From: a virus
Taxonomy: Duplodnaviria; Caudoviricetes
IMG/VR virus record: IMGVR_UViG_3300048803_000071
Span: 1-64,000 of that record
Reading direction: 5' to 3' (one strand)
DNA: 64,000 bases
In this document: positions 2,195 to 34,911 of the stretch, piece by piece
How positions within the stretch are numbered: position 1 is the stretch's first letter
How the letters are laid out: each line of letters opens with the position of its first letter
Notes under the pieces: model-generated
The model's database searches: none
The model's input: the letters and a program-made list of their open reading frames with translations, nothing else
What the model was told of the DNA's origin: nothing
Position numbers and translations under genes: made by a program

Positions 2195-3997
2195 TTAATC
2201 GGATATACTTGTTGTATTTAAAATTTCCAGCTGTTCCAACGGTAATATGTCAACTTCAGCAACATAAAAAGGTCCGTCGTTTGAATCTGCTGTTAATTCT
2301 TTTAATGTCTGACCCCCTACTATTAATTGAATTTTTTGTGTGCTGCTATTGAAATAGACACCAACACCCTGATTTTGACTTATATCGGCAAGTCCACTTC
2401 CATTGACACTTTCTACAGAAGATGCTATAGCATTTGCCTTAATATATCTGGGGGTAGTTCCTTTTCCCATGTAATCCACTGCTAATATGCTTTCATCTCC
2501 AATCTCATTCACATTAAATCTAATCCTGGCAAACTTAAGAACTCTGAAATTAGTGGTTACAAGAGTTGGCGCACAGAGTCCGTTAAACATAAACCATGAA
2601 TCCTTATTTTCCTCTATGTATAATGAAAACCTTAATTTTTCTTCTTTTCTTATTTGACCAATATAATAATTTAAAGTAGTGAGCATTGCGGGAACACTTA
2701 CTATCTCAACTTCTTCGGTTCCTGTGTTGTCAATTTTCTGCTTTTGTAAAAAACATTTGTTATCTTTGAAATACAGATCTCCTAAAGAATAATCATTTGG
2801 CTTATCCCCTAATTTAATAGAAGATTTTAAACGTGCTGTGATTTTTTCTTCTTCCCAGCTGTACGGACTTCTTATCGGAGTATTGTATACTAATTTTCCA
2901 ATGGATATTACATTTCCTGATTGTTGTGTTTGGAAGCATTTATAACTATAAGAGCCGTAATCAGAAGGAAATAAATAAAAATAATTTGTTCCTTCATTTA
3001 TTTGACTATCTGCTACCCAATCATCGAGATTAATTTGAGTTGCTGATAAATGTACTTCTCTTCCTAGTGGACTGTATGCATAAATCTCGGTAAGTAATAA
3101 TTGATTTCCCATAATTATACTCCCTACTCCTCCGCTCCTTACTCCCGGGGTTATGAAATTTCTCATGAACTCAGTAAGTGTATTAATTATTCTGGCTTCT
3201 TCTATAGTTGTTACTTGTTTGTTGATTCCATTTAATATACTATCGGCATTCACATTTCCGGAAAATTTTTCCTTGTATAAATTTGATGTTCTTCTGTCTG
3301 AGATTCTGTCTATTTCAGCACCGAGTATTGAAACAACGGCTAAACAGATACCATTTATTTGGTCCGTGGTTATTAAAATATCATAATCGTTATATTCGTA
3401 TAAAGGGTTATCCTCTGTGTTGGGTGTAATTTCCTGTCCGTAATATCCCATGATCTTCCATGGTAAATTATTTTCTGTGGTACCGGTAAAAGATTCTGTT
3501 AATTCAATTGTGGATGTGCCAATATTAGCAACTTTATATAAACCGTTATTTCCGCTTATACTATCATATATACCAATATATTCGAAAGGATATATTTTAG
3601 TGAATGTCCCACCTGCTATACTTACAGTTTTTGAGCCGTTAGTAAATGAAAGTATTCCTTCTTCGTAACTTGATTTTTTAGGAACTACTGTTATATAAAA
3701 ACTACCATCACCATATTCGGATAAATCTATTGACGTTCTATCTACTTTTATTATTATAATTTCATTGTTTAAATTCCAAATACAGTATCCGCCATTTATA
3801 TCGATTGATAGTTCTGATTCTTTTCTTACTCTGCAATCTTCTGTATATATTCCCCCGGTTGTTTTTTCAAGAACTACACCAAAAGTTATTGCTTTTGCTC
3901 TTATTAATTCTTCCAGGTTTGAGTTTGTCGATTCCATAAATTGCTTCATAATTTTATTATGGATTCTTAATTTTGTACCGAAGTTTACTTTATTCAT
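2195..3997 (-). CDS. Baseplate/tail fibre-associated structural protein
   Basis: 600 aa, beta-rich, follows gpI-like gene; internal beta domain (GILSFTNGSKTV...NNGLYKVANI). Confidence 0.55.
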   Translation of the reverse strand: MNKVNFGTKLRIHNKIMKQFMESTNSNLEELIRAKAITFGVVLEKTTGGIYTEDCRVRKESELSIDINGGYCIWNLNNEIIIIKVDRTSIDLSEYGDGSFYITVVPKKSSYEEGILSFTNGSKTVSIAGGTFTKIYPFEYIGIYDSISGNNGLYKVANIGTSTIELTESFTGTTENNLPWKIMGYYGQEITPNTEDNPLYEYNDYDILITTDQINGICLAVVSILGAEIDRISDRRTSNLYKEKFSGNVNADSILNGINKQVTTIEEARIINTLTEFMRNFITPGVRSGGVGSIIMGNQLLLTEIYAYSPLGREVHLSATQINLDDWVADSQINEGTNYFYLFPSDYGSYSYKCFQTQQSGNVISIGKLVYNTPIRSPYSWEEEKITARLKSSIKLGDKPNDYSLGDLYFKDNKCFLQKQKIDNTGTEEVEIVSVPAMLTTLNYYIGQIRKEEKLRFSLYIEENKDSWFMFNGLCAPTLVTTNFRVLKFARIRFNVNEIGDESILAVDYMGKGTTPRYIKANAIASSVESVNGSGLADISQNQGVGVYFNSSTQKIQLIVGGQTLKELTADSNDGPFYVAEVDILPLEQLEILNTTSISD

Positions 3998-4692
3998 TGA
4001 ATTACCTCTCCAAATTTAAATGTTCCAAATTTTATTCTGTAAGTGTTTTTTATGTCAAACCATGTAATTATATGAGGTTTGATTATGATGATGTTTAGAT
4101 TAATTGTTAATGGCACAAATTCTTTTCTTATTATGTCTATTACTTCATTGTCCGAATATCCGGAATTATTATTGATTGTTACTTCTAATAGATTGTCCAG
4201 GTCTAATCTGCAAACTCCGTCAAGTGTTGTTTCCGTAGGGGAACTGTATTCAGGAAAGGTTTGATCTAACCACCATCCGCACTCGGTCCAGGGGTAATAA
4301 TTAATTTCCTTAAGTCCCTGAGCTAATCTGCTTATATCGTCTCTTATTCCCTGTTCTTTTCCTCTGTTTTGATGGATTGCATAAATATTATTAATGGCAT
4401 TTATTATTTCTTCCTTACTGGAGTTTCTGCTTAAGAATATTTGTGAATCACTGTTTGCGTATTTTAAAGCATCTGAATATTGTTCAATATGTACCGTTTG
4501 TAATTTCTTTAATCCGTTGTACCACCTTACCATAGATATAGCTATTGAAGTTAATATGTCTTTACATAACTTATTTATGACTATAAATTTTGGTAAATAA
4601 TCAATTAACGCGAGTAAGAAATAAAATCTGATCGGCTGCCCGAATTTGAAAGTGCCAAATTTAGGTACCGAATTGTCTTTTCTATTTATCAT
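3994..4692 (-). CDS. Baseplate wedge protein (gpI-like)
   Basis: LIDYLPKF N-terminus, H-x-x-RG-x-x-x-GI motif, IIRKEFVP C-terminal motif typical of gpI-like proteins. Confidence 0.6.
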   Translation of the reverse strand: MINRKDNSVPKFGTFKFGQPIRFYFLLALIDYLPKFIVINKLCKDILTSIAISMVRWYNGLKKLQTVHIEQYSDALKYANSDSQIFLSRNSSKEEIINAINNIYAIHQNRGKEQGIRDDISRLAQGLKEINYYPWTECGWWLDQTFPEYSSPTETTLDGVCRLDLDNLLEVTINNNSGYSDNEVIDIIRKEFVPLTINLNIIIIKPHIITWFDIKNTYRIKFGTFKFGEVIQ

Positions 4693-5672
4693 TATGGTTT
4701 AAGAAAAAATCCTGTATTTTTATTGTGATTGTCATAGATAACATTAACTTGAGTGCCAATATTAAGAGTGTCGTTCGACATATTCCCTATTAATCTTGTT
4801 ATTGCTGTATTAGAATTAAAAATATTGCCTCCCCATTGGTTATATATTTTGGAATTAATCATAAATAATTTACATCTATTATCACATGATATAACAATAC
4901 TTGAAACATTTACCATATTAATTATCCTGCAATTTTCGATATAAGCATTTGATCCGTCTTTATTATAGATATTGATCCATTCTTCATAACCTTCAAGTCC
5001 TTGATTAAAACCATAGATTAAAGAATTTGTCAATGTATATGAGGCGCTGTCGGAATATATAGCATATCCGTAAATATCTGCACTTCCATATAATTTTAAT
5101 ACTAAATTATCAAATATAATCTTTGAATTTTCTGTCGAATCACTCCATGAATTTTTTATTCTTATTAGAGTAGAAGATGCATTCCCTGCATTTGAGAATA
5201 TTGTAATATTCTTCATAGAGAAGTTACTGCAGTTTATAGCATATACAACTGCCGTGTCTATTCTGGATATGATTACCCTGCTTGGATCATCTCCTACAAT
5301 CGCTACATTGCTTTTTGCCGTAATACGTTCTGTATATATTCCCGGATGAACATATATTACTCCACTGTCTATATTTGTGAGAGCTGCTGATATTGAAGGT
5401 GATGTTTTTCTCCAAATGCTCAAGGGATATGATGGTGATACTTCCCAATAATTTCTTGGGATAATAGTTGTATCCTGTATAATGGTTTGAACTTTAATAG
5501 ATGATCCGCTCATGTCGATTATTCCCGGTGTTCTGTTGGATATAGTATCACCGGACGATAATTTTATCGAAGGATTCTTCCGAAACCTTATAGCATCAAA
5601 ATCCGTATATTGGACTTCATAATATGCGAATCCGAACAGGAATAATATGAATATAAAAATTTTGGTTCTCAT
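4692..5672 (-). CDS. Pectin-lyase-like beta-helix protein with signal peptide
   Basis: SISAAL...IYVHPGIYTERI...VAIVG motif followed by beta-helix repeats; hydrophobic N-terminus. Confidence 0.7.
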   Translation of the reverse strand: MRTKIFIFILFLFGFAYYEVQYTDFDAIRFRKNPSIKLSSGDTISNRTPGIIDMSGSSIKVQTIIQDTTIIPRNYWEVSPSYPLSIWRKTSPSISAALTNIDSGVIYVHPGIYTERITAKSNVAIVGDDPSRVIISRIDTAVVYAINCSNFSMKNITIFSNAGNASSTLIRIKNSWSDSTENSKIIFDNLVLKLYGSADIYGYAIYSDSASYTLTNSLIYGFNQGLEGYEEWINIYNKDGSNAYIENCRIINMVNVSSIVISCDNRCKLFMINSKIYNQWGGNIFNSNTAITRLIGNMSNDTLNIGTQVNVIYDNHNKNTGFFLKP

Positions 5673-5673
5673 T

Positions 5674-6699
5674 TTATTTCTCCTTTTTAGGTTTTTGTTT
5701 ATATTTATCTTTTATTATTTCTACTGCTTCTCTTAGTTTGTACTTGTAATGTGTTTGATCTATTCTCCCGCTGTAAAATAGTTCAAAAGCTTCTTTGTAT
5801 ATTTTTATTATATTGCTGATTTTTTTTGTTGCTTCTCCGTTTTTAAATGAATCTGTATATTCTTTGTATACCATCTGAGCCTGCGGCATATTAATTTTAT
5901 ATTCTTCTGCAATAACTTTAATTTTACTCATATATATCTGTTGTTTTTCGGATGCCTTATAGTTTTTTCTCTTCTCTTCTTTTCTTAATATTCTTATGTT
6001 TTTCTGAATAAGAGGAGTATTTAAAATGACTTCGGTAGATAATTTCTTTAGAATCCTCGCTTTAATGTTCTGTTGGAAATTATAAGAGTAATTTGTGTTG
6101 TGCAAAGCATCTATTTTCGCAAGTTCTTCAAATGCGGATACTAGCATTGCTTCTGTGTTAATTGCTTGCTCTTGAACTTCTACTCCTTTCATAAGTAGTT
6201 TTACTTCGTTTTGCCTGAGTTTGTAGTATTCAATTCTTATCGTTTCGTCAGTTTGCTGAAATTTTATGATGTCTTTGATGTTCACATCCATTTGAAACAT
6301 ATTCGATATTAACTCTTTTATTTCATCTGAGCTGTCTTTTTTTAATAATAAATCTTTTACTTTTTCAAAATATGTTAATATCAAATTTATTTTTCTATAA
6401 CCGGCCTGATTGTCTTTCGAATATTTTGCAATTGTTAAATCGTATTCCTGAATGGCTGCTCTTATCTGATTTACAATATCATATCCTTCTATAAACGTTG
6501 GTCGTATTTTCCATCTCTTTATATCTACTAAAATTCTGTCAATAGATATTCTGGGTAATCCGTTCGGATTATTACCGTAAAGGTTGGATATTTCTTCTAC
6601 TTTAAGTTGATAGTCCCATATATAACTTTTTAAGGTTTCTTCGTCATACCTTGTTGGCGGTGGTGCCTGTGGGATTTCTAATATGTTTGTTTCGCTCAT
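5674..6699 (-). CDS. Hypothetical helical protein (possibly DNA-binding or small-terminase-like)
   Basis: 341 aa, helical, basic C-terminus; no decisive motif. Confidence 0.3.
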   Translation of the reverse strand: MSETNILEIPQAPPPTRYDEETLKSYIWDYQLKVEEISNLYGNNPNGLPRISIDRILVDIKRWKIRPTFIEGYDIVNQIRAAIQEYDLTIAKYSKDNQAGYRKINLILTYFEKVKDLLLKKDSSDEIKELISNMFQMDVNIKDIIKFQQTDETIRIEYYKLRQNEVKLLMKGVEVQEQAINTEAMLVSAFEELAKIDALHNTNYSYNFQQNIKARILKKLSTEVILNTPLIQKNIRILRKEEKRKNYKASEKQQIYMSKIKVIAEEYKINMPQAQMVYKEYTDSFKNGEATKKISNIIKIYKEAFELFYSGRIDQTHYKYKLREAVEIIKDKYKQKPKKEK

Positions 6700-6732
6700 A
6701 ATTTTTATTTTTTTTACTGACTACTACTGTTC

Positions 6733-7524
6733 TCAATATGTTGGTTTTGGTTCTACCCCTTCTTCTACATTTTTCTTTAATGAAAAAGCTGTTCCTTCAT
6801 TTATTGTTCCTTCACAATCTGAGTTTTTCATCACGTATGTTCCCCCTGTCATTCCGGCTGCAAGTGTTAATGATGCTCCATCCGTCCCCAGGATATTATC
6901 AACATTTGTGATGAAAAGTTTATTGTTGTTTCCCGATACACTTATTGCACTCCAGTGCTCACAATTATGTATTAAAACCGTTGAGCCTCCGGACTGTAGG
7001 AAGTTCCCGGAAACCTTGGAACAATTTATAAAGACCGCTACTCCGCCTGTAATAGAGATGTTGTTGGAGAATTTAACGTTTTCGAATATGTGTACACCGG
7101 TACTTAATATTATGTTTCCGCTGATTATTGAGGTGTCTTTTTGTATCCCCCTGAAAACAACATAACCATCATGGTTTAATGTCAGTGCTTCTCCGTAACT
7201 TGTTGTCTTTGCCCTTATTTCAATTAGTGCTTTATCTGTAGAAGAAGAACCATCCGTTATAACACCAGCATAAGCATCCGATACCTTGCTAAAATAAGGT
7301 TTATTAAGAGAGCTGTAATTTTCTCCTACCATATAATGCTTCTGCGGTAATAAAGCAATCGCTGCGTCTTTTAGGTATTTATGAATATTGTCTAAAAAAT
7401 ATTGTTTGTTCGCATTCGTTCCGTTTAAATCCCCTTCATATTCAGCATCTATTATAGCTACTAAATCTGCAAGGTTTGTTGTTGCCGCATATACTAAATT
7501 AGATGTAGATGTAGGTGTAGTCAT
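6733..7524 (-). CDS. Structural protein with short beta-helix
   Basis: FSKVSDA...LIEIRA beta-helix cap followed by repeats; downstream of baseplate J. Confidence 0.5.
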   Translation of the reverse strand: MTTPTSTSNLVYAATTNLADLVAIIDAEYEGDLNGTNANKQYFLDNIHKYLKDAAIALLPQKHYMVGENYSSLNKPYFSKVSDAYAGVITDGSSSTDKALIEIRAKTTSYGEALTLNHDGYVVFRGIQKDTSIISGNIILSTGVHIFENVKFSNNISITGGVAVFINCSKVSGNFLQSGGSTVLIHNCEHWSAISVSGNNNKLFITNVDNILGTDGASLTLAAGMTGGTYVMKNSDCEGTINEGTAFSLKKNVEEGVEPKPTY

Positions 7525-8730: not shown

Positions 8731-9651
8731 TTATTTAAAATTAGTAGCGGGAGTTGGGGTCGCACCAACCTTTCCAAGAGAATGAATCTTGGCTACTCCT
8801 AACCGAGCGTCCCGCAGTGTTTTTTCAAAATCTTTTAATAAATTATTATCATATTCCCAATGATGATTTGGACACAAAGCTATCAAATTATCAATATGAT
8901 TTACTTCTGATAGCATAGTCCCGTTTGGAAAATCTTTCACATCTTTTTTATGGCAAATATCTATTCTTTTATCATATCCGCAAACCTCGCATACATATAG
9001 TCTCTTTGCCCTTTTATAAACTTGTCTTGCATTCTTTGCTATTCGTGTTCTATATTTTATCCAATGAGGAGATGATGTTTTGAGTTTTTCAATTGATATA
9101 TCTCTTTCTTTAATATAACATTCTCTGCATAATTTACTTGAAGATGTTCTTGATTTAATTTTTCCACATTTGCAAAAACGAGTACGATATTGATTTAAAC
9201 CCTTAACATTATATATTTTTATATAACATTCTCTGCATGATCTGGATACTTTCCTTTTTAATTTTCCACAATCGCAATAATCATATTGAATTAATTTTTT
9301 AATTTTCCGGCTTTCAAGATTACATTTTTTACAGCATGTAGATGTTTTCTTTTTCAATTTTCCGCAGACACAATAATTATACCCTCTTAAATCTTTAATT
9401 TTATTTTGATATTTACTTGGACTTTCATAATGTTTTTTATTATTGTATATAGCTGCACAACTACAATTACAGAATTTCTTCATTCTTATTTGTCCCGGCT
9501 TTTTTCCTTCCGGGATCTCTATTCTTTTATTACATTGTAAACAATAGGGGGGATTTTCATAATATTTTTTTATAGCATTATCTCTTGATATAATCGCCAT
9601 TTTCTGGCCGCCGCCCTGTCCTTTTATTTTTCCTGTTGATGTTAACGTCAT
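8731..9651 (-). CDS. Free-standing HNH homing endonuclease with tandem Zn-finger repeats
   Basis: C-terminal CEVCG...DICH...DNLIALCPNHH; three CxCG-x-x-K...CxxC repeats; inserted between baseplate genes; probable start MAIISR at 9600. Confidence 0.85.
   Translation of the reverse strand: MTLTSTGKIKGQGGGQKMAIISRDNAIKKYYENPPYCLQCNKRIEIPEGKKPGQIRMKKFCNCSCAAIYNNKKHYESPSKYQNKIKDLRGYNYCVCGKLKKKTSTCCKKCNLESRKIKKLIQYDYCDCGKLKRKVSRSCRECYIKIYNVKGLNQYRTRFCKCGKIKSRTSSSKLCRECYIKERDISIEKLKTSSPHWIKYRTRIAKNARQVYKRAKRLYVCEVCGYDKRIDICHKKDVKDFPNGTMLSEVNHIDNLIALCPNHHWEYDNNLLKDFEKTLRDARLGVAKIHSLGKVGATPTPATNFK
8745..8816 (-). tRNA. tRNA-Met(CAT)-like element, atypical or pseudo
   Basis: GCGGGA/TCCCGC acceptor stem with 1:72 mismatch, CAAGA-TTCATTC-TCTTG anticodon arm, GTTGG-TGCGACC-CCAAC T-arm; poor D-arm, no encoded CCA. 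Confidence 0.6.
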
Positions 9652-15726: not shown

Positions 15727-18339
15727 TTATCCATTATTTATATAAGCCGTCGTTTGAATTTCCGATAATATTTTTTCTTTCAATTCTTGTAATCCTAAAT
15801 CTAATTTTTCAGTTAATTCTTTTCCGTTAATATTGATTGTTACTTTATTATCAAAGTTAAAACCATTCATATTTTCTCCGTGTGGTATTGGATGTTTAAA
15901 AGTATCATATATATCTTCCCATCTTCCTTTGTTACCTTGCAGCATTTCTTTTAACATATCCCATAATCTTTGTTCAGCTTTTTTACCGGAAAATAACCCG
16001 TATAAATCTCTTTGTTGTGTTCCTTCAACTCCTAATTCGTCAAATTTATATTTATTAAGTTTGACTCCCTTAACTTCGAATATACTCGGGTCTATTTCGA
16101 AATATCTATTTTCCCCCATAGGCAAATATATGTTTTTTCCTTTTTTTTCTTCTGTGCTAACAGTTCTTACACCTTTCTTTAATTCTCCGTTTTCTTTTAA
16201 TTGACCCATCATATTATTAGGATCGTTTTCCCAGTTATATAATAAATTCTGCCAAAACTCTTTCACATCCGTTTTTTCTTGTCCTTCTTTCTTTTCTTCA
16301 GTAAGATCATCCAATAGTTTACTCATATCTTTAAGGCCGCCTGTTACAGCATCTACAACTTCTTTTATTTTTTTAGGAAATAAATCATTGTAAAACTCTT
16401 CTGTATAACTTTGTATAGACCATATATCTTTTGCGATTTTCCCGCCTGTGCTCATCATCCAGTTCATAATTTCCGCATGGTGTTTATCTGCTTGCGATGT
16501 GTTTTTCCCTCCTATACCAACTAGTTCTTCAAGCTTCTTTTTCTGCTCTTCGCTGTCAGGTGCTAAATCTTTCGTGTTTTCGTCGATGTATCGTAACCAT
16601 TCATCCAATCCTTCCCCGTATCCCTCTATTGATTTGTCTTTATTGAAGTTGTAAGCTTTATCGATAACTTGTTTAGCTAATTGCGGACTCTCTATTCCTA
16701 ATCCTTGCATTGCAAAGAATGTTCTTTGTTCATCACCAAAGCCCTGTAATCCCTTGAATAATTTACTCCGTACGTCTTTATCGTAAATTCCCCTCTCTTT
16801 TTGCAGTTCAAATTCCATAAGACTTTTTGGCTTTAAAGCACTCATTAAAAATGCATCACCTGCGGAACCCGGTGCTTGATTGAACATCCCTTGTAATCCG
16901 GATAGTGTCCATTGTCCCATATCTCCCATTCTGCCTTTTGCTGTATCTCCGTATAAAGCAAATGGTAGAAATGATGTTTCTAATAAATTCCTCTCGCTTA
17001 CTTTCATTCCGGATTTTGTCATAACTACCGATAGTTGATTCATAGCGTTTATTAAATCACCCATCCTTGCATTCATTCCGGTTACGTTTGATAATCCACG
17101 TCTCGATTGAAGCTCTGCCGCTCCTACTTCTTCTCCTGTATAACGGGTTGCTACTGATGCCTGGAATATCTCCTGCGGATTGTAACCGTAACCCCTTGAG
17201 AATGCAAGTTGCCCTTTAAATGTGTCCTCTTTGTATTTTCCTGTAATTGCGGATTGTTGATATTGTAATTGATATAATTCAGAATCCGAATAGCCTAATC
17301 CTCTTCCTGTTACCCCACCCATTCCGAATCGTGCCTTTGCTATTGCCCGGCTTCGGTCATATTCTTCGTATACGGCTACTCTCTGTTCCATTTCAGGGTA
17401 CATCTGCATCATTAGTTGATTAGATTGTTTCTGTGGTAATTGAGCCTTTATTAGTTCGGATTCTTTAGTTGAACCAATTAAATTTCCTATCCCTCCTCCC
17501 AATGCTCCCATTATCATTGAACCTATTGCAAATCCGGGTAAACCGCCGCCTAATGCTAATCCGCCTAAACCGCCTATCATTCCTAATCCTAACTGTCCGA
17601 ATGTTTGATATGCCTGTTTCTTTAACATCATATCTCTCATTTCATTAGCCATCCTTGTCTCTGAAATAACAGCTGCGTTTTGTACGAGATTTGAAACATT
17701 AAAACCTAAACCCGTCGCCTGCTGTTTTTGTGCAGATATAAGTTGGTATTCTGATGCATAAGCTCCTATGCTTGTTATTGCCTGTGCGATTAATCCTGCT
17801 GCTATGTATTTTCCTATAATAGACATGCTGCTTTTTGTTTCCGGATTATTCTTTACTATGTTTTGAGATGCTACATCTACTCCGGATATCATATGTCCGT
17901 AAGTTCTGTCAAATGCCTCTCTCCCTGCTTCAGATGGTATACCTTGCCTTACAGCTTCATCTTGCCAGTGGGCCCGTTGCTCTGACCATGTTTTTAATAA
18001 TTTTGGTGAAACCTTCGTTAATTGTTCGCTGAACATTTTTTCTATCTGGGGAGTTGATGCAGCATTTACTCCGTATAAAGCTCCCTGGAATTCTTCAAAT
18101 GCTTTTTGTAACCTCGGATCTTTAGATAATCCTTTAATAAATTGTGATAGGTTTTCAGGTGTTTGCTTTGATGCGAAAGGTGTGACCGTTTGAGGAGTCC
18201 CGGTGCCGCTTCCACCACTCGTTACTCCTCCTAAGTCTTGGTTTACGTCTTTTACCGCTTGGCGAAACTCGTTCACCTGCCTTGTTGCTCCGGTTAGTTC
18301 ACTCGCATTTGCTCTTAGATTAAACTCTAAATCTGCCAT
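15727..18339 (-). CDS. Tail tape measure protein
   Basis: ~870 aa, helical, with Gly-rich hydrophobic stretch (GGLGGLALGGG...); lies between chaperone and hub; probable start MADLEF. Confidence 0.85.
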   Translation of the reverse strand: MADLEFNLRANASELTGATRQVNEFRQAVKDVNQDLGGVTSGGSGTGTPQTVTPFASKQTPENLSQFIKGLSKDPRLQKAFEEFQGALYGVNAASTPQIEKMFSEQLTKVSPKLLKTWSEQRAHWQDEAVRQGIPSEAGREAFDRTYGHMISGVDVASQNIVKNNPETKSSMSIIGKYIAAGLIAQAITSIGAYASEYQLISAQKQQATGLGFNVSNLVQNAAVISETRMANEMRDMMLKKQAYQTFGQLGLGMIGGLGGLALGGGLPGFAIGSMIMGALGGGIGNLIGSTKESELIKAQLPQKQSNQLMMQMYPEMEQRVAVYEEYDRSRAIAKARFGMGGVTGRGLGYSDSELYQLQYQQSAITGKYKEDTFKGQLAFSRGYGYNPQEIFQASVATRYTGEEVGAAELQSRRGLSNVTGMNARMGDLINAMNQLSVVMTKSGMKVSERNLLETSFLPFALYGDTAKGRMGDMGQWTLSGLQGMFNQAPGSAGDAFLMSALKPKSLMEFELQKERGIYDKDVRSKLFKGLQGFGDEQRTFFAMQGLGIESPQLAKQVIDKAYNFNKDKSIEGYGEGLDEWLRYIDENTKDLAPDSEEQKKKLEELVGIGGKNTSQADKHHAEIMNWMMSTGGKIAKDIWSIQSYTEEFYNDLFPKKIKEVVDAVTGGLKDMSKLLDDLTEEKKEGQEKTDVKEFWQNLLYNWENDPNNMMGQLKENGELKKGVRTVSTEEKKGKNIYLPMGENRYFEIDPSIFEVKGVKLNKYKFDELGVEGTQQRDLYGLFSGKKAEQRLWDMLKEMLQGNKGRWEDIYDTFKHPIPHGENMNGFNFDNKVTININGKELTEKLDLGLQELKEKILSEIQTTAYINNG

Positions 18340-19676
18340 TCCCATCTCCAATTATTTCTAAAATATTTATCAATTATTTTAACCGATATACTCCCCAATC
18401 CTTCAATTATAACTCTCGTACCCTTACAATGTGTACTCTTTGCAATATATTCTTTACCTTTAATCCAAACAGAATCTAAAGGTTGTATATTATATCTCTG
18501 TTTTCTTATTGAAGGTTTAAACCCTTTTCTACTTACTTGCAATTTTCTATTGTTTCTGTGCTTTTGTATTACCCAAAAAGGTCTACATCTTTCTTGAATT
18601 TCACCTCCTGCTATACAAAATGCATCATTAAAATGTTCTTTACTTAATCCTAATTTTATTCTTTTAACGAATGTCTGATAACCATAAGCAATCTTACATT
18701 TCATATCTTTTAAAAATCTGTTTTTGATTATATTCATAAATGTAGATTCTTTGTATTGCTTGTTCTTTTTTAACAAATGTAATAAATTTTCTTTATGGAT
18801 TTTATCGTGACATTCTTTATGAAGTAAGGCAAGATTATCAACAGAATTTGTACCACCCTTTGATTCTTTAATTATATGATGTATGTGCCAGCTGTTATTT
18901 TTATCATATTCTTTTTGACAAAATTGACATTTACCATGTTCCCTCGAGATTAAATATGAACGTACATTTTGATAGCCATAAAGATTCCCTTGCTGATATT
19001 CTATTCCTTGAATTTCCGGATTTTTAATCTTTTGAATGTCAAAATTTCCCGATTCAACAACGGTTTCTGAAATTGGTAAAATTTTCTCCAATCTTTTTAT
19101 CAGATTTAAATGTGTATCATATCTTCGCTGAATTGATGGTGGTAACCATCCTTCTTTTTTTACTCGATTCAACCATCTTGCTTCTCGATACCAATGATGT
19201 CTATTCCTTCTCCCTCTTCTATGTATTCTTTTTTCTGTTAATCTTTTTGATGTTTTATCATCTAATTTTAATTCACCTGAAATCAATTCTTTCTTTTCAG
19301 ATATGCAAGAAAAACCAATATATTTATATCCTGAATCAATTCCACAGGTTACATCCTGTGTTTTTTCTTCACAATCAAAATTTAATTGGATTGCGAAGGG
19401 AACACGTTTAATTACTTTTGCTCTGCCTCCTTTTAATAGTTTACGTGCTTTTGCCGGTTTGCATGGCATTAAAGGTTTCCCTGATTTTGCTATTACAAAC
19501 ACATTGACTTTACGTCCCACTGTTTGTTGTGGTTGATCCACTTCGAGGTTGTTACAATCCAGAACTTTATCTGCAACACTAAGACTTTGGTCTTTGTTTA
19601 ATTGCAAATTCGTAGAGCAAAGGACTTGTGGAGTATCCCTTGGTACGCTCTTAATCTCTAATTGTAACTTCTGCAT
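18327..19676 (-). CDS. iscB: RNA-guided endonuclease IscB
   Basis: PLMP domain; RuvC-I GIDSG; Arg-rich bridge helix; RuvC-II VVESGNFD; HNH (HHI...N...H); RuvC-III HFNDA; all catalytic residues present. True start may be GTG at 19502. Confidence 0.95.
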   Translation of the reverse strand: MQKLQLEIKSVPRDTPQVLCSTNLQLNKDQSLSVADKVLDCNNLEVDQPQQTVGRKVNVFVIAKSGKPLMPCKPAKARKLLKGGRAKVIKRVPFAIQLNFDCEEKTQDVTCGIDSGYKYIGFSCISEKKELISGELKLDDKTSKRLTEKRIHRRGRRNRHHWYREARWLNRVKKEGWLPPSIQRRYDTHLNLIKRLEKILPISETVVESGNFDIQKIKNPEIQGIEYQQGNLYGYQNVRSYLISREHGKCQFCQKEYDKNNSWHIHHIIKESKGGTNSVDNLALLHKECHDKIHKENLLHLLKKNKQYKESTFMNIIKNRFLKDMKCKIAYGYQTFVKRIKLGLSKEHFNDAFCIAGGEIQERCRPFWVIQKHRNNRKLQVSRKGFKPSIRKQRYNIQPLDSVWIKGKEYIAKSTHCKGTRVIIEGLGSISVKIIDKYFRNNWRWEWQI

Positions 19677-19747
19677 AAATTTTTCTTTTTTAATTTAAGC
19701 CCTCTAATCAGCTCTTTTTAATTCGACTGATTCACTTGTCTCGTTGC
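19503..19747 (-). ncRNA. omegaRNA (scaffold ~19503-19731 plus predicted 16-nt guide 19732-19747)
   Basis: ~230 nt directly 5' of the PLMP domain; ATCAG...CTGATTAGAGGGC 5' stem and omegaRNA-like internal motifs; boundaries inferred. Confidence 0.8.
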
Positions 19748-20644
19748 CACTTTCTTCTTATATCTTTTGTTTCTTCTTCGAACATTTTTCTTCTTGTAAT
19801 CTGTATTGATCTTACTGTGTCAATATCACTTATAAATTTTTGGTTTTCATACGATTTTCTTAATTGTTCCTCTTCTTCTTTCGCTTCTTTTACATCGGCG
19901 TCTGTTGAATAGTTTTCTTTACAATTCAAAATTGCATGTGCTTCTTCTTTTAGTTCATTTTCAAATTGCTCAGCTGTAAGGGAACTTTCACCGGCGGGTA
20001 GTCTTTCTTCGAATACTTCTCTTAAACTTGCTAATCTTATTAATAAGTAATCTTTGAATATCTCTGGTTTCGTTGCTTTTAAATAGCGTTCATCTGTTAA
20101 AGGTAATTTATAATAATCTCTCCAATAGTTTACTATGCTTTTCGATTCTAAATATTCATCGGATAATTCTTCGGATAACTCGATATTCTCATTATTAAAA
20201 TCAATGTCGTGTAATTCATTTATTAGTTGTAGTAGTTTTTCTTTTTTTGACGTTTCGAAAAAATTGACTAACCGCTACCTCGTGAGCGGCTTGGATTTCT
20301 TTTAGTTCCTCTTCCGTTATTTCTGAAAGAACTTTTGGTTTTCTTGTCCCTAATACTTTTATTGTTGCATATGTCTCACATTTCTTCATTAAATTATTAC
20401 AGCCGGATACTAATGCTATATCATAAGAATCGTTTATGCTTTGGATTTTTATTTCTCCGTTTTCTCCGGGCTTAAGCCTTTGATATATTTTTAATATATC
20501 CTGCCGTGCTCGTTCAAGCGGGACTATACCACCGTATAGTCCCGCTAAAGTAGATTCGATTCGTCGTTTTTCAAGGAAAGTTGGTTCTGCAATAATTTCG
20601 AACTCTCCAATCCCTTTAACGTCGAAAGTTATTGTTTCTCTCAT
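19732..20644 (-). CDS. Tail assembly chaperone GT (programmed frameshift product)
   Basis: Frame 19732-20274 is stop-free, has no ATG before its conserved motif, and overlaps the end of G at TTT TTT CGA (20255-20263); contains YWRDYYKLPLTDERYL. Confidence 0.75.
20216..20644 (-). CDS. Tail assembly chaperone G
   Basis: Between tube and tape measure genes; ends ...QFFRN at the slippery site. Confidence 0.75.
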   Translation of the reverse strand: MRETITFDVKGIGEFEIIAEPTFLEKRRIESTLAGLYGGIVPLERARQDILKIYQRLKPGENGEIKIQSINDSYDIALVSGCNNLMKKCETYATIKVLGTRKPKVLSEITEEELKEIQAAHEVAVSQFFRNVKKRKTTTTNK

Positions 20645-21330: not shown

Positions 21331-23283
21331 TTACGCTATCACCGCCCCTGTGACCACATAATTCTCTATACCTATGAAGTCGGTTACATCCGGTAATACA
21401 ATTTCCGTTTTGATTAAGAAGCCTAATTCCACCTTCTTAATCTCTTTAAATCTTATCGTAATTACATATCCGGCTTCGATGTAAGCTGAAGCACTTGCAT
21501 TTAAAAATCCTATTACATCATTGAGAGTTACTCTGTCATTACCTATTAATGCTTCATCGAGACCTTCCATTATTCCAACGTGGAAATAATCCGCCAACCC
21601 TCTTTGTTGAATTAAATATGTCATTTTATCGGCTTCGTTCCATTCGTGACTGTGGTCCTGATAAGTGTTTATTCCCTGTGAAATTTTAATTCCATATTTT
21701 CCTTTTATCGCTAACATGACTCCGTTTTTTGTACAGTATGCTATTTCCGTATCGGTTAATTCACCCTCTAAACTCGATGCTATCACCCTGTCTCTGGTTA
21801 GATTGTGAGTTACGGGATTTGCAAGCATAGCTCCGAATACCTGCGGTGCAAAGGATAAATATGAAGGTTTATCGTCAAATCCAATTGCCGGTAATATTAC
21901 CTGGTCTGAATTTAGGTTCTTCGCTCGTGTAACCCATTGTGCCGGTGTCTCTCCGGCTGCTGTCCCCGCTACTATTTGTAATGGCTGTTTGTACTCATTC
22001 CCTTTCATTAATGTTGCTAAAGCATCGAATGCACTGTGAATTGCAGTATCGGAGGTTGCAAGATTTATTACTCTTATATTTATTTTATGTTCATATAAAA
22101 AATCTTTCCTCCAATCAGGGAAAAGTCCTGCGATTGCTAAATAATCCGTTGAACTAACTGCCGGTGTTGTACCCAATGTTGCCGTTCCTATTTCTGAAAA
22201 ATAATCACTTGAAAAAGCTGCCGGTGTTGTAGTCGCTGCTGTATGTATCGCAAATATTAATTCATCTTGATATTCATTTAATTTGTGAACTATCGTTTCT
22301 AAATCCCATTCGGCAAATGTAAAATCAACAGTTGTTTCTTTACTTGTATCTGATTGGATTAATCTTGCATAGTTTGCCTTGGTAACTGTTGCGCCGACTA
22401 TTGCAGTTTCTATTAATACTTTATATCCTCCAACTGTTGAATTATATGTGGTATTTATAAAGGTTATTGTAACTGATGTTAATTTCCCGTCTGCTGATGT
22501 CATTAAATCAAATACGTTTCCTACTGAAATACCCTCTATACTGTCTATCCATAAAAAATTTTGTCCGGCTATTGCGTTTGCAGCTATCATTTTTTCATTC
22601 TTTGTAGGAATAAATGAAAATGTAAATAATGGCTGAACAATCTGGTATCCCGAATCTGTCGAGGGATTTACTGTCCAGGTTGCAACAGTTAAAGCAGTTG
22701 CTGTATTGTCTGTTATTTTCCTTGTCTGCCCTATTCCTGTCCCGCTGACTATTTTTACCCATTTCCCTATTAATGCATCGATAGTCCATGTGGCTCCGGA
22801 ATCTGTTAAAGATGTTGCTCCTCCGGCCGTCGCTGTTCCGGAATCGATGACCGTTTGTTCATCACCACCTGCGGCTTCTGTTAATCCTAACTTTATATCA
22901 TTACCAAATACACCATAGTTTTTAAGTGAAGCCTCTACATCTAAAACTATGGCTGCAGAACCATTTACAACCCCTGTTGATGCTTTTGTTGTAGGTTGTG
23001 CGTTTAATACAAATATTGCCCCAGCTCCTAATTTCTGAGCCTCTTTGAAGTTGTTGTATATATCATCATATCCGTAATCCGCAGCTACTGCCCCGGGATT
23101 ATCATATAAACACATAACTTCACTTCCTTTTTCGGATGCATTATAAGGTGTTCCTTTCGGTGACTTCCCTATAATTAATCCTACATTAAAATCCGGTAAA
23201 TTAGCACCGGCTTGTTGTATAACTCCCAGAAGTCCAACTACTCCTGGTACGTCGTAAGTTTTACCATTAAATTGAAATCCCAT
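21331..23283 (-). CDS. Tail sheath protein
   Basis: FNGKTYDVPGV N-terminus, NYGVFGNDI, KISQGINTY and DFI C-terminal sheath motifs. Confidence 0.9.
   Translation of the reverse strand: MGFQFNGKTYDVPGVVGLLGVIQQAGANLPDFNVGLIIGKSPKGTPYNASEKGSEVMCLYDNPGAVAADYGYDDIYNNFKEAQKLGAGAIFVLNAQPTTKASTGVVNGSAAIVLDVEASLKNYGVFGNDIKLGLTEAAGGDEQTVIDSGTATAGGATSLTDSGATWTIDALIGKWVKIVSGTGIGQTRKITDNTATALTVATWTVNPSTDSGYQIVQPLFTFSFIPTKNEKMIAANAIAGQNFLWIDSIEGISVGNVFDLMTSADGKLTSVTITFINTTYNSTVGGYKVLIETAIVGATVTKANYARLIQSDTSKETTVDFTFAEWDLETIVHKLNEYQDELIFAIHTAATTTPAAFSSDYFSEIGTATLGTTPAVSSTDYLAIAGLFPDWRKDFLYEHKINIRVINLATSDTAIHSAFDALATLMKGNEYKQPLQIVAGTAAGETPAQWVTRAKNLNSDQVILPAIGFDDKPSYLSFAPQVFGAMLANPVTHNLTRDRVIASSLEGELTDTEIAYCTKNGVMLAIKGKYGIKISQGINTYQDHSHEWNEADKMTYLIQQRGLADYFHVGIMEGLDEALIGNDRVTLNDVIGFLNASASAYIEAGYVITIRFKEIKKVELGFLIKTEIVLPDVTDFIGIENYVVTGAVIA
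22681..22848 (-). repeat. 168-bp segment duplicated at 24355-24522
   Basis: Ungapped alignment, 141/168 identical by hand count; encodes IDSGT...WTIDALIGKWVKI...RKITDNTAT domain. Confidence 0.95.
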
Positions 23284-23315: not shown

Positions 23316-23717
23316 TTATTTCAAAAAATCTAAATATAACTTCTCCCATTCCTCATTTGTCTTTTTTTCGTTCTCGGGAATTTTTGCCAGCTGGCATTTC
23401 ACTGTCATAAATTTCAAAGCGAATTTATTCACAGCATTTTTTTCTAACCCTTTACAAAACTCGTGTAATGTCAGCCCTGCCACTTCTTCTGCCCCTGCAA
23501 CTTCTTGCTTTTGCTCTTGCTCTTTATCAACTGCTACTGCTCCTGCAACTTCTTGTTCTTGCTCTTTATCAGTTGCTTCTGCTACTGCCCCTGCTACTTC
23601 TTGCCCCTGCTCTTGCTCTTTATCAACCCCGGCTACTTCTTGTTCTTGCTCTTCAGCTGCTTCTGCAACTGCATCTGCTACTGAAACTTCTTCTTTGTCT
23701 CTTTTAGTTTTACCCAT
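23316..23717 (-). CDS. Small acidic low-complexity protein
   Basis: Repeats of EQEQEVAG and AVA-DKEQ. Confidence 0.55.
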   Translation of the reverse strand: MGKTKRDKEEVSVADAVAEAAEEQEQEVAGVDKEQEQGQEVAGAVAEATDKEQEQEVAGAVAVDKEQEQKQEVAGAEEVAGLTLHEFCKGLEKNAVNKFALKFMTVKCQLAKIPENEKKTNEEWEKLYLDFLK

Positions 23718-24837
23718 TGTCGTTTATGAATTCAGTTTCGAAAAATAAGTTATTTAATAATTCATCCTCTTCTTGCGATGATATTAAGTTTTGGATAAGA
23801 ACATTTATTAATAAACCGCCGTACATTAGATTCTTACCCGTATATCGCTGATCTATCCCATCACCTATAATGGATATTTTTACATCCAATATTCCGTCTC
23901 CGCCTTTTGTGTTGAGATATCTTTTTATTACTCTTTTTGTTCCCCGGAATATGTTTGTTAATTTATCCCTTAATCTTGGATTATCCGCACATTCCCAGAT
24001 TACCGATAAAACATCTGTATCGATATCACCTGTTAATATTAAATTGCCATTTGTAGCAGAAATATCGGACCAGAACCTGTATGAATTCTCACCTGAACTC
24101 CTTGTAACTACAATAAAGCATGGATCTGTTACTTCTACAGGGAATTCGTTATAAACCATTATTTCCGATTTGGTCTGCCTTGCAACGCTTCTTAAAAGCT
24201 TTTTAAAACATTCTATTACTAAATCTTTTGTATCTGCTACTGAAATAACAGCCTCAAAATCCTTTGCTAAAATATTTGCAGATAATATATCCGATATGTT
24301 ATTTTCGAAAATTTCATATAGGGATGTACTGTTTGGAAGAGGCGTCGACCATGCTGCAATAGTTAAAGAGGTTGCTGTATTGTCTGTTATTTTTCTTACT
24401 TGACCGGCACCTGCTCCGGATATTATTTTTACCCATTTTCCTATTAATGCATCGATAGTCCAGGTGGCTCCTGTATCTGATAAAGATGTTGCTCCTCCGG
24501 ATGTTACTGTTCCGGAATCGATTAAAATTTTTGCTTTCTCAATAACAACAGCCCTGTAATAATATTTTTGCTTCCCTTCTACATCTACATCACGAACCGA
24601 TAATTGATTGTTAGATAAGGTGTAGTAGACAAATAATCCTTTTGTTATGCTTTCCGGTACAGGGTTTGCAATATAATTTGTTATTTCTTCGTTTGTAATG
24701 TCTGATTTGGACCTTTTGAAAATATATAACTGATAAAGTGGATCGAGCTTTTGTTCGAATTGCCAGTTTATATCGATTTCATTACCGAGTGGATGTGCAT
24801 ATAATTCGAAAACTATAGGTGTTGGCGGTGCTACCAT
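23710..24837 (-). CDS. Tail terminator/neck protein with FN3-like N-terminus
   Basis: IDINW...YIFKR...YYYRAV FN3-like pattern; C-terminal terminator-like domain (IWE...RLRDKL); upstream of sheath. Confidence 0.6.
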   Translation of the reverse strand: MVAPPTPIVFELYAHPLGNEIDINWQFEQKLDPLYQLYIFKRSKSDITNEEITNYIANPVPESITKGLFVYYTLSNNQLSVRDVDVEGKQKYYYRAVVIEKAKILIDSGTVTSGGATSLSDTGATWTIDALIGKWVKIISGAGAGQVRKITDNTATSLTIAAWSTPLPNSTSLYEIFENNISDILSANILAKDFEAVISVADTKDLVIECFKKLLRSVARQTKSEIMVYNEFPVEVTDPCFIVVTRSSGENSYRFWSDISATNGNLILTGDIDTDVLSVIWECADNPRLRDKLTNIFRGTKRVIKRYLNTKGGDGILDVKISIIGDGIDQRYTGKNLMYGGLLINVLIQNLISSQEEDELLNNLFFETEFINDNG

Positions 24838-24897
24838 GATTTATTTTCAAATAAAGGTTTCAAATAAAAGCTTCAAATACTGTATTTCCAAATATGA

Positions 24898-24947
24898 TAC
24901 AAAAATCTCGATGTGCGTGAGGAAATTACAAGGGGGGGTGGTTCTTT
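24898..24947 (-). promoter_or_regulatory. Putative late promoter, copy 2 (tail operon)
   Basis: 50-bp exact duplicate of 34862-34911; contains TTGTAA...GATTTTTG on the minus strand. Confidence 0.75.
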
Positions 24948-34831: not shown

Positions 34832-34861
34832 TAATGTTTGTTAGTGTTTTGTCTTTTATGG

Positions 34862-34911
34862 TACAAAAATCTCGATGTGCGTGAGGAAATTACAAGGGGG
34901 GGTGGTTCTTT
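34862..34911 (-). promoter_or_regulatory. Putative late promoter, copy 1 (head operon)
   Basis: 50-bp exact duplicate of 24898-24947, 30 bp upstream of the protease start and just after a terminator. Confidence 0.75.

Follow-up and report, generated by a model that had tools for sequence, protein, structure and literature searches.

A gene for the RNA-guided nuclease IscB, related to the ancestor of Cas9, lies, together with its omegaRNA, within the tail genes of a tailed virus (Duplodnaviria; Caudoviricetes) represented by IMG/VR record IMGVR_UViG_3300048803_000071; the stretch analysed, hereafter the window, is the first 64 kb (positions 1 to 64,000) of this 92,782-bp record, which is classed as a provirus. 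The unit has lost both ends of an IS200/IS605-type transposon, and its 16-nt guide has a second, synonymously diverged copy close to the start of the next gene, which occupies the position of a tape-measure gene. We lean, with slightly more than even confidence, towards reading the unit as a transposase-independent, RNA-guided and free-standing nuclease for homing or competition, which would act on relatives whose allele matches the guide. The observations behind this reading are the anatomy of the unit, the missing ends, the guide copy and a parallel arrangement at a related locus, L028.

The omegaRNA stands directly upstream of iscB on the same strand and carries its guide at the 5' end. This guide, GCAACGAGACAAGTGA (19732..19747, minus strand), is directly 5' of the part of the omegaRNA that matches the HEARO family. 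As an initial annotation of the window had recognised, the same 16 nt serve as the last codons and TGA stop of the tail assembly chaperone T frame, where they read (W)QRDK-stop; in the frame of the tape-measure gene they read ATRQV(N). That annotation took the guide to be fixed by coding overlap, and the overlap is real, but the main point had been missed, namely that a synonymous variant of the guide survives in the tape-measure gene. This copy, GCAACAAGGCAGGTGA (18273..18288, minus strand), forms codons 18-23 of the gene, begins 39 nt beyond the stop of iscB and matches the guide, whose strand it shares, at 13/16 positions. Extended by two bases, the guide encodes ATRQVN, as does the tape-measure gene, and the codon differences between them (ACG/ACA, AGA/AGG, CAA/CAG and AAT/AAC) are synonymous throughout. 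The three mismatches within the guide all fall at third codon positions, for which the chance is 10/560, and no shuffled guide reached 13/16 this close to the unit (0/500). That the similarity is a coincidence is in our view highly improbable: a further 13/16 match does exist at 20076..20061, and a reversed control pattern finds two matches in the record, but the copy described here lies less than 40 nt from the end of the unit, on the same strand and with every mismatch in codon phase, while the stop overlap has a homologue in a relative that lacks IscB and L028 shows the same layout independently.

The IscB-less relative, Logan contig L024/L025, indicates where the guide came from. In it the stop codon of T (TAA) runs across the V-K codons of RKVKEF, which is homologous to RQVNEF in the window, where the TGA of the guide overlaps V-N; since the overlaps fall on homologous codons, the guide is, judged by this comparison, the place where the T stop ancestrally overlapped the tape-measure gene. 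A rare GTG codon (9% of Val codons) is kept in both guide and gene copy, and a comparison of codon usage between guide and gene copies is weakly suggestive. The 17 tape-measure codons that precede the copy, MADLEFNLRANASELTG (18289..18339, minus strand), overlap the 3' end of iscB by their first 13 nt, and M1, L4 and E5 align with the N-terminus MVLEAD of L024. Past the aligned block the T tail measures 25 aa in the window and 43 aa in L024, a shortening by 18 aa that fits an in-frame loss of 17 codons which would once have overlapped the tape-measure leader. Of two other accounts of this region, an ancestral tape-measure start at GTG 19750 is less likely, as M1, L4 and E5 are common to L024, and the idea that the 17-codon leader forms part of the element was rejected, as the corresponding leader in L028 is conserved in 11 homologues.

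About 100 related IscB loci were gathered, and their omegaRNAs were located with a hidden Markov model (HMM). Among them L028, whose IscB is 59% identical to that of the window, has a guide, ATATCAGCGTGAAATG, with a 13/16 copy, TTACCAACGTGAAATG, that lies 51 nt into a gene starting 12 nt after the iscB stop. Because all 11 homologues of this downstream gene begin MLDKKFLKKVTETFGVVYQREMMIEEC, leader and copy are native to this gene, and it is the guide that is secondary. In three different siblings of L028 without IscB the upstream gene is followed directly by the downstream gene, and the site reads ATATCAACGTGAAATG-ATGA; the L028 guide matches these sibling alleles at 15/16 positions, compared with 13/16 for its own allele. 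Only in L028's own allele is the site followed by ATTA, by way of the substitution M23I, seen in 0/11 homologues. The guide itself lies in non-coding DNA, and the stretch before it, ATGGAAAC...ATTAAATATCAGCGTGAAATG, looks like an L114-type allele's 5' end from which 39 nt have been deleted in frame. At a third locus, L081, a non-coding flanking repeat of 18 nt (16/18 identical) lies 11 nt after the iscB stop. Of ~69-78 distinct loci, the window, L028 and L081 thus have a clear downstream guide copy and L106 has a possible one. A 14/16 match in L074 was dropped as it falls inside the scaffold, and a downstream copy as a general rule of such loci was rejected, most of them having none. Contig L081, which is metagenomic, also carries two different IscB-omegaRNA units (2732-4170 and 5640-5792), 3 kb apart and each with its own guide.

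The transposon ends were assessed by alignment to the intact relatives L037, L067 and L026, each of which has a matched pair of GC-rich hairpins, one in stem P1 at scaffold position ~8 and the other at or just before the iscB stop. In L037 the two are identical (CCACTGAAcaagTTCAGTGG at scaffold position 8 and at the stop), in L067 they read CCACTGTTtaaaAACAGTGG and CCACTGGTtaaaACCAGTGG, and in L026 CCCAACCCtaaaGGGTGGGG and CCAACCCcgaaGGGTTGG; such pairing is the pattern expected of the left and right ends of IS200/IS605 elements. Near either boundary of the window unit no GC-containing hairpin was found, both sub-terminal hairpins of the relatives being absent. Nucleotide identity between the window and L026 ends at TGG AGR TGG G, beyond which L026 has a 13-codon tail holding its hairpin and the window has AATGGCAGATTTAG, the start of the tape-measure gene. 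Since the hairpin pairs are absent and identity with L026 stops at the tape-measure start, the sequence comparison supports a deletion of both ends in the window unit. The initial annotation had proposed this loss from the letters of the window, and each of the features it cited recurs here: there is no tnpA; the IscB stop (TAG 18329-18327) lies inside the next gene, past its ATG at 18339; and the 5' stem P1 of the omegaRNA (ATCAG/CTGAT) closes an A-rich loop, of 15 nt, in place of a GC-rich hairpin. Both the tape-measure start and its GGAG (18349-18346) lie inside iscB. By the same test both hairpins are missing from 31/78 distinct related loci, so the state is not rare.

For the Y1 transposase TnpA, neither a PF01797 search of the whole 92,782-bp record nor our own TnpA HMM run on the window gave a match. 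This absence is uninformative, given that tnpA is found near only ~1.5% of iscB genes (Meers et al., bioRxiv 10.1101/2023.03.14.532601); the same authors report that IscB elements tend to share the orientation of the gene upstream and that the omegaRNA lies at the transposon's right end. It is in keeping with an ordinary non-autonomous insertion sequence mobilised in trans by a TnpA of host or phage, most iscB genes having no tnpA nearby (Meers et al.), and among the gathered loci it is only the more distant relatives (L005-L010, L088, L101) that have tnpA directly after iscB. We nevertheless give this explanation very little credence, for the window unit has neither of the sub-terminal hairpins of its intact relatives and no non-coding DNA at either boundary. 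There is, moreover, one IscB copy in the record; the search for near-identical copies of the unit elsewhere found none, the best match reaching 71% at the protein level, and the same unit at unrelated loci, which the initial annotation had named as evidence against its proposal, was likewise not encountered. Its further conclusion that the unit is immobile stands for transposition and not otherwise, as spread by homing would be likely.

A unit without ends might also be a stranded, functionless remnant: a non-autonomous insertion, saved by the duplication of local sequence and by now in decay, with the guide copy as a scar. The missing TnpA and end hairpins would suit this account, as would the frequency of stranding among related loci (31/78) and the score of the omegaRNA, slightly under the Rfam gathering score. 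The condition of the nuclease gene and the RNA speaks otherwise. The IscB open reading frame (ORF; 18327..19676, minus strand) has 449 codons in its longest form, from ATG 19676, and matches the Pfam families RRXRR (2e-63) and HNH (3e-12). It aligns with OgeuIscB (E 3e-44) across the RuvC D/E/H/D and HNH residues, through the motifs GIDSG, VVE, HIHH...N...H and KEHFNDAFC, and it has the features that place a protein in the IscB family, namely an N-terminal PLMP/RRXRR region, a split RuvC and an inserted HNH. Relative to the nearest protein, that of L026 (71% identical), the ratio of non-synonymous to synonymous substitution rates (dN/dS) is 0.13 in the body of the gene, and every catalytic residue is kept.

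Over codons 1-58 of the long ORF (19520-19676), which overlap the omegaRNA and are also open in most close relatives, dN/dS is 0.74. From this contrast, the real start of IscB is probably GTG 19520, the segment 19520-19676 appears to be constrained as RNA, and gene callers would over-extend the protein by ~55 aa. The omegaRNA scaffold (19532..19731, minus strand) matches the HEARO model RF02033 over its full length (model positions 1-211) with 77 bits (E 3e-15) and has a fold z-score of -3.6. The match is 6 bits below the gathering score of 83 because stem P1 is shortened, lacking the right-end-type hairpin: P1 is ~35 nt shorter than in L026, L028 and L002, and the extra nucleotides of these relatives include the GC-rich hairpins. 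With its catalytic residues kept, a dN/dS of 0.13 and a full-length omegaRNA, the IscB system looks functional, and purifying selection on IscB together with conservation of the guide at every non-synonymous target site would fit an active system. A decaying remnant is therefore unlikely in our judgement: its omegaRNA is complete apart from P1, the differences between its guide and the gene copy are confined to sites synonymous in the gene, and the L028 guide, though non-coding, is closer to the sibling alleles than to its own.

How the guide might tell alleles apart can be considered in the light of OgeuIscB, which needs a guide of ~16 nt and a target-adjacent motif (TAM) of the form NNRR, and in which mismatches at TAM-proximal positions 1-14 abolish cleavage (Kato et al., PMC9640706). 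Directly 3' of the guide-like copy in the window stands ACGA (18269..18272, minus strand), which would suit a TAM of the NNRR type. The window's own allele keeps this ACGA and has its mismatches at TAM-proximal positions 5, 8 and 11, and the DNA of the guide itself is followed in the window by ATCA, without RR. The 3' flanks of the presumed targets elsewhere are ATGA in the L028 siblings, ATAA in L081 and CGAG in L106, with ATTA in L028's own allele. These flanks are consistent with an NNRR-like TAM for the window IscB and its kin, and by analogy with OgeuIscB the three synonymous mismatches would protect the window's own allele.

A third alternative would give the unit a domesticated regulatory or structural role, in which IscB-omegaRNA binds the 5' region of its own tape-measure gene, or processing of the omegaRNA cuts the operon mRNA and so sets the ratio of chaperone to tape-measure protein. 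The unit lies exactly at the junction of T and the tape-measure gene, whose start and GGAG are inside iscB, and there is precedent in the TnpB-derived nuclease-dead repressors (TldRs; PMC13565253). In contrast to TldRs, however, the nuclease residues of IscB are intact; stable binding to the own allele is disfavoured by two of the three mismatches, which fall in the TAM-proximal half; and L024, without IscB, manages without the unit. We regard such a role as quite improbable.

The origin that we propose for a homing or competition nuclease runs as follows. An IscB element of the IS200/IS605 type would have inserted right after the T stop, at a point where T and the tape-measure gene's 5' end overlapped, and a duplication of that 5' end downstream of the element would have restored the gene. 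The upstream copy would then have shrunk to the 16-nt guide, still ending T, while both end hairpins were deleted and the IscB frame ran into the tape-measure start. The outcome would be a compact unit that no transposase could move and that is read through within the tail operon. Its guide would match the ancestral or a sibling allele of tape-measure codons 18-23, the own allele being set apart by its three synonymous mismatches. On meeting a co-infecting relative or a homologous prophage with a matching allele, IscB-omegaRNA would cut it, and repair from the IscB-bearing genome would copy the unit in, or else the rival would be destroyed, amounting to free-standing ('intronless') homing guided by RNA. 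Cleavage, self-immunity and homing by the window unit are thus predictions drawn from its sequence.

Several points weigh against this reading. Matches of 13/16 to the guide are expected by chance about twice per record, so that the case for the guide copy rests on its position and codon phase. The duplication route is conjectural. Siblings of the window phage were sought with the tape-measure protein, chaperone G, and sheath and tape-measure alignments against viral and genome contigs; only L024/L025 came to light, which is too diverged to serve, and none turned up whose allele matches the guide perfectly. The single mismatch between the L028 guide and the sibling alleles sits where a mismatch blocks OgeuIscB. 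Finally, a guide copy lies downstream in only 2-4 of about 69-78 related loci and is therefore no rule for the clade.

Among known systems, the closest include the IscB-omegaRNA units of ISC type (OgeuIscB, PDB 7XHT/7UTN; GstIscB/ISGst5), with which the window unit has in common its domain set and catalytic residues, an upstream HEARO-type omegaRNA whose 16-nt 5' guide comes from flanking sequence, co-orientation with the gene upstream and the want of a nearby tnpA. It differs from them in having neither sub-terminal hairpin, in an ORF fused onto the start of the next gene, and in a guide with a diverged second copy in an adjacent intact gene, such that self would be told from non-self by substitutions and not by presence or absence of the element. 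The window unit also resembles the free-standing phage endonucleases of intronless homing or marker exclusion, T4 SegF, SegB and Mob (PMC13565253), where a nuclease gene likewise lies between conserved, co-oriented phage genes, the presumed target is in a neighbouring gene and the own allele differs by few substitutions; unlike these, recognition in the window would use a 16-nt RNA guide and a TAM instead of a protein, and the unit is of transposon origin. The 'transposon non-restorative homing' proposed for OMEGA systems, and shown for TnpB on plasmids (PMC13565253, section 6.1), resembles our reading of the window unit in being independent of TnpA, in cutting the orthologous site of another replicon and in using an element-bearing repair template, but its target is the empty site, so that what is recognised is whether the element is there, whereas the window element stands beside an intact copy of its target and would rely on mismatches, and L028 also on a changed TAM-side base. 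Restorative homing by IscB has been demonstrated for Geobacillus elements (Meers et al., bioRxiv 10.1101/2023.03.14.532601), while the 2026 review PMC13565253 names 'non-restorative homing' into co-infecting phages as a possibility in theory and, for 'intronless homing' that relies on sequence substitutions, lists protein endonucleases only. In our literature search no account turned up of an IscB guide directed at a neighbouring gene that has been recoded.

Nearly all long ORFs of the window, and all genes around the IscB unit, are on the minus strand. In order they encode a 650-aa sheath-like protein, a 194-aa protein in the tube position, the 142-aa chaperone G, the T frame, the IscB unit, the 870-aa product of the tape-measure-position gene and a 983-aa protein with SLT and peptidase domains. 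Searches of the tail genes against Pfam and PHROG gave no match, and their names are therefore taken from synteny. Chaperone G (20216..20644, minus strand) comes from the ORF list and its place in the order sheath, tube, G, T and tape measure as in L024. The T extension frame (19732..20274, minus strand), ending ...RRKWQRDK-TGA, is 39% identical over 140 aa to that of L024; the tape-measure-position gene (15727..18339, minus strand) is 31% identical to protein P0001 of L024/L025 and is assigned by position. A run of seven A (20242..20248, minus strand), seen in the three-frame translation, is the likely slippery site from G into T (+1 or -2). The shift goes into the +1 frame and not the usual -1, a relation conserved in L024 at a run of six A (about 6730); the shift could come about through slippage in transcription or through +1/-2 ribosomal frameshifting, and a 7-bp hairpin (20291-20270) lies just upstream of the A7 run. 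A degenerate DNA pattern for the empty site, also aimed at siblings of the phage, returned no match, and scans for sigma-70 promoters and terminators between T, iscB and the tape-measure gene found nothing above chance. Co-transcription of the unit with the late genes and processing of the omegaRNA out of the operon mRNA, as the initial annotation had suggested, are plausible from this layout.

Other features of the window were noted in passing. A 70-nt direct repeat (24878-24947 and 34842-34911; 89% identical, with an identical 50-nt core that includes a G7 run) stands upstream of both the tail module and the head module when read on the minus strand; it is a candidate for a late promoter or an activator site. 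A 174-nt direct repeat (22675-22848 and 24349-24522; 83% identity) is common to the sheath-like gene and a 375-aa gene, and about five degenerate 48-nt repeats stand in tandem at 23482-23715, inside a 133-aa ORF (23316-23717), and overlap the start of the 375-aa gene. Among the genes of the baseplate region, a 306-aa ORF (8731-9651) has a weak match to an HNH endonuclease (phrog_8048, E 3.5e-4) and could represent another selfish nuclease of the tail module.

Beyond the window, more than 16% of HEARO loci are on viral or proviral contigs (PMC9755519), and PHROG 119 holds viral and proviral IscB proteins. In L021/L022/L023 (~5914-7307) a 379-aa ORF comes after a strong HEARO match (117 bits); its likeness to the window IscB is limited to the codons overlapping the omegaRNA, and it may encode a divergent IscB or an IsrB-type partner. 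Cultured Ralstonia phages (Bakolyvirus and relatives), among them Adzire (L117, NC_054462.1 35523-36938), have a gene for an IscB-like 'HNH endonuclease', ahead of which lie ~900 nt of DNA without annotation; the context of these homologues differs from that of the window, but they could provide a tractable system for the study of phage IscB homing.

Taken together, the window and L028 raise a more general model, to which we give a little less than even credence, in which phages would repeatedly convert IscB transposons into transposase-free, RNA-guided and free-standing homing nucleases. An element would land in the 5' end of an essential gene, that 5' end would be duplicated behind the element, the upstream copy would be whittled down to a guide and the working copy would escape by synonymous changes or loss of the TAM, after which rivals with the unrecoded allele would be cut and either converted or killed. 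The natural role of IscB has so far been shown only as that of a helper which keeps IS200/IS605 transposons from being lost. In the window the transposon machinery is gone, the nuclease and its guide are conserved, and the guide would be aimed at a neighbouring essential phage gene. With L028 it supplies the guide, a likely NNRR-type flank and putative 'sensitive' and 'resistant' alleles with which to ask whether RNA-guided nucleases serve as weapons of homing and competition between phages. The window unit would also show IscB on a path from transposon passenger to fixed genomic tool.

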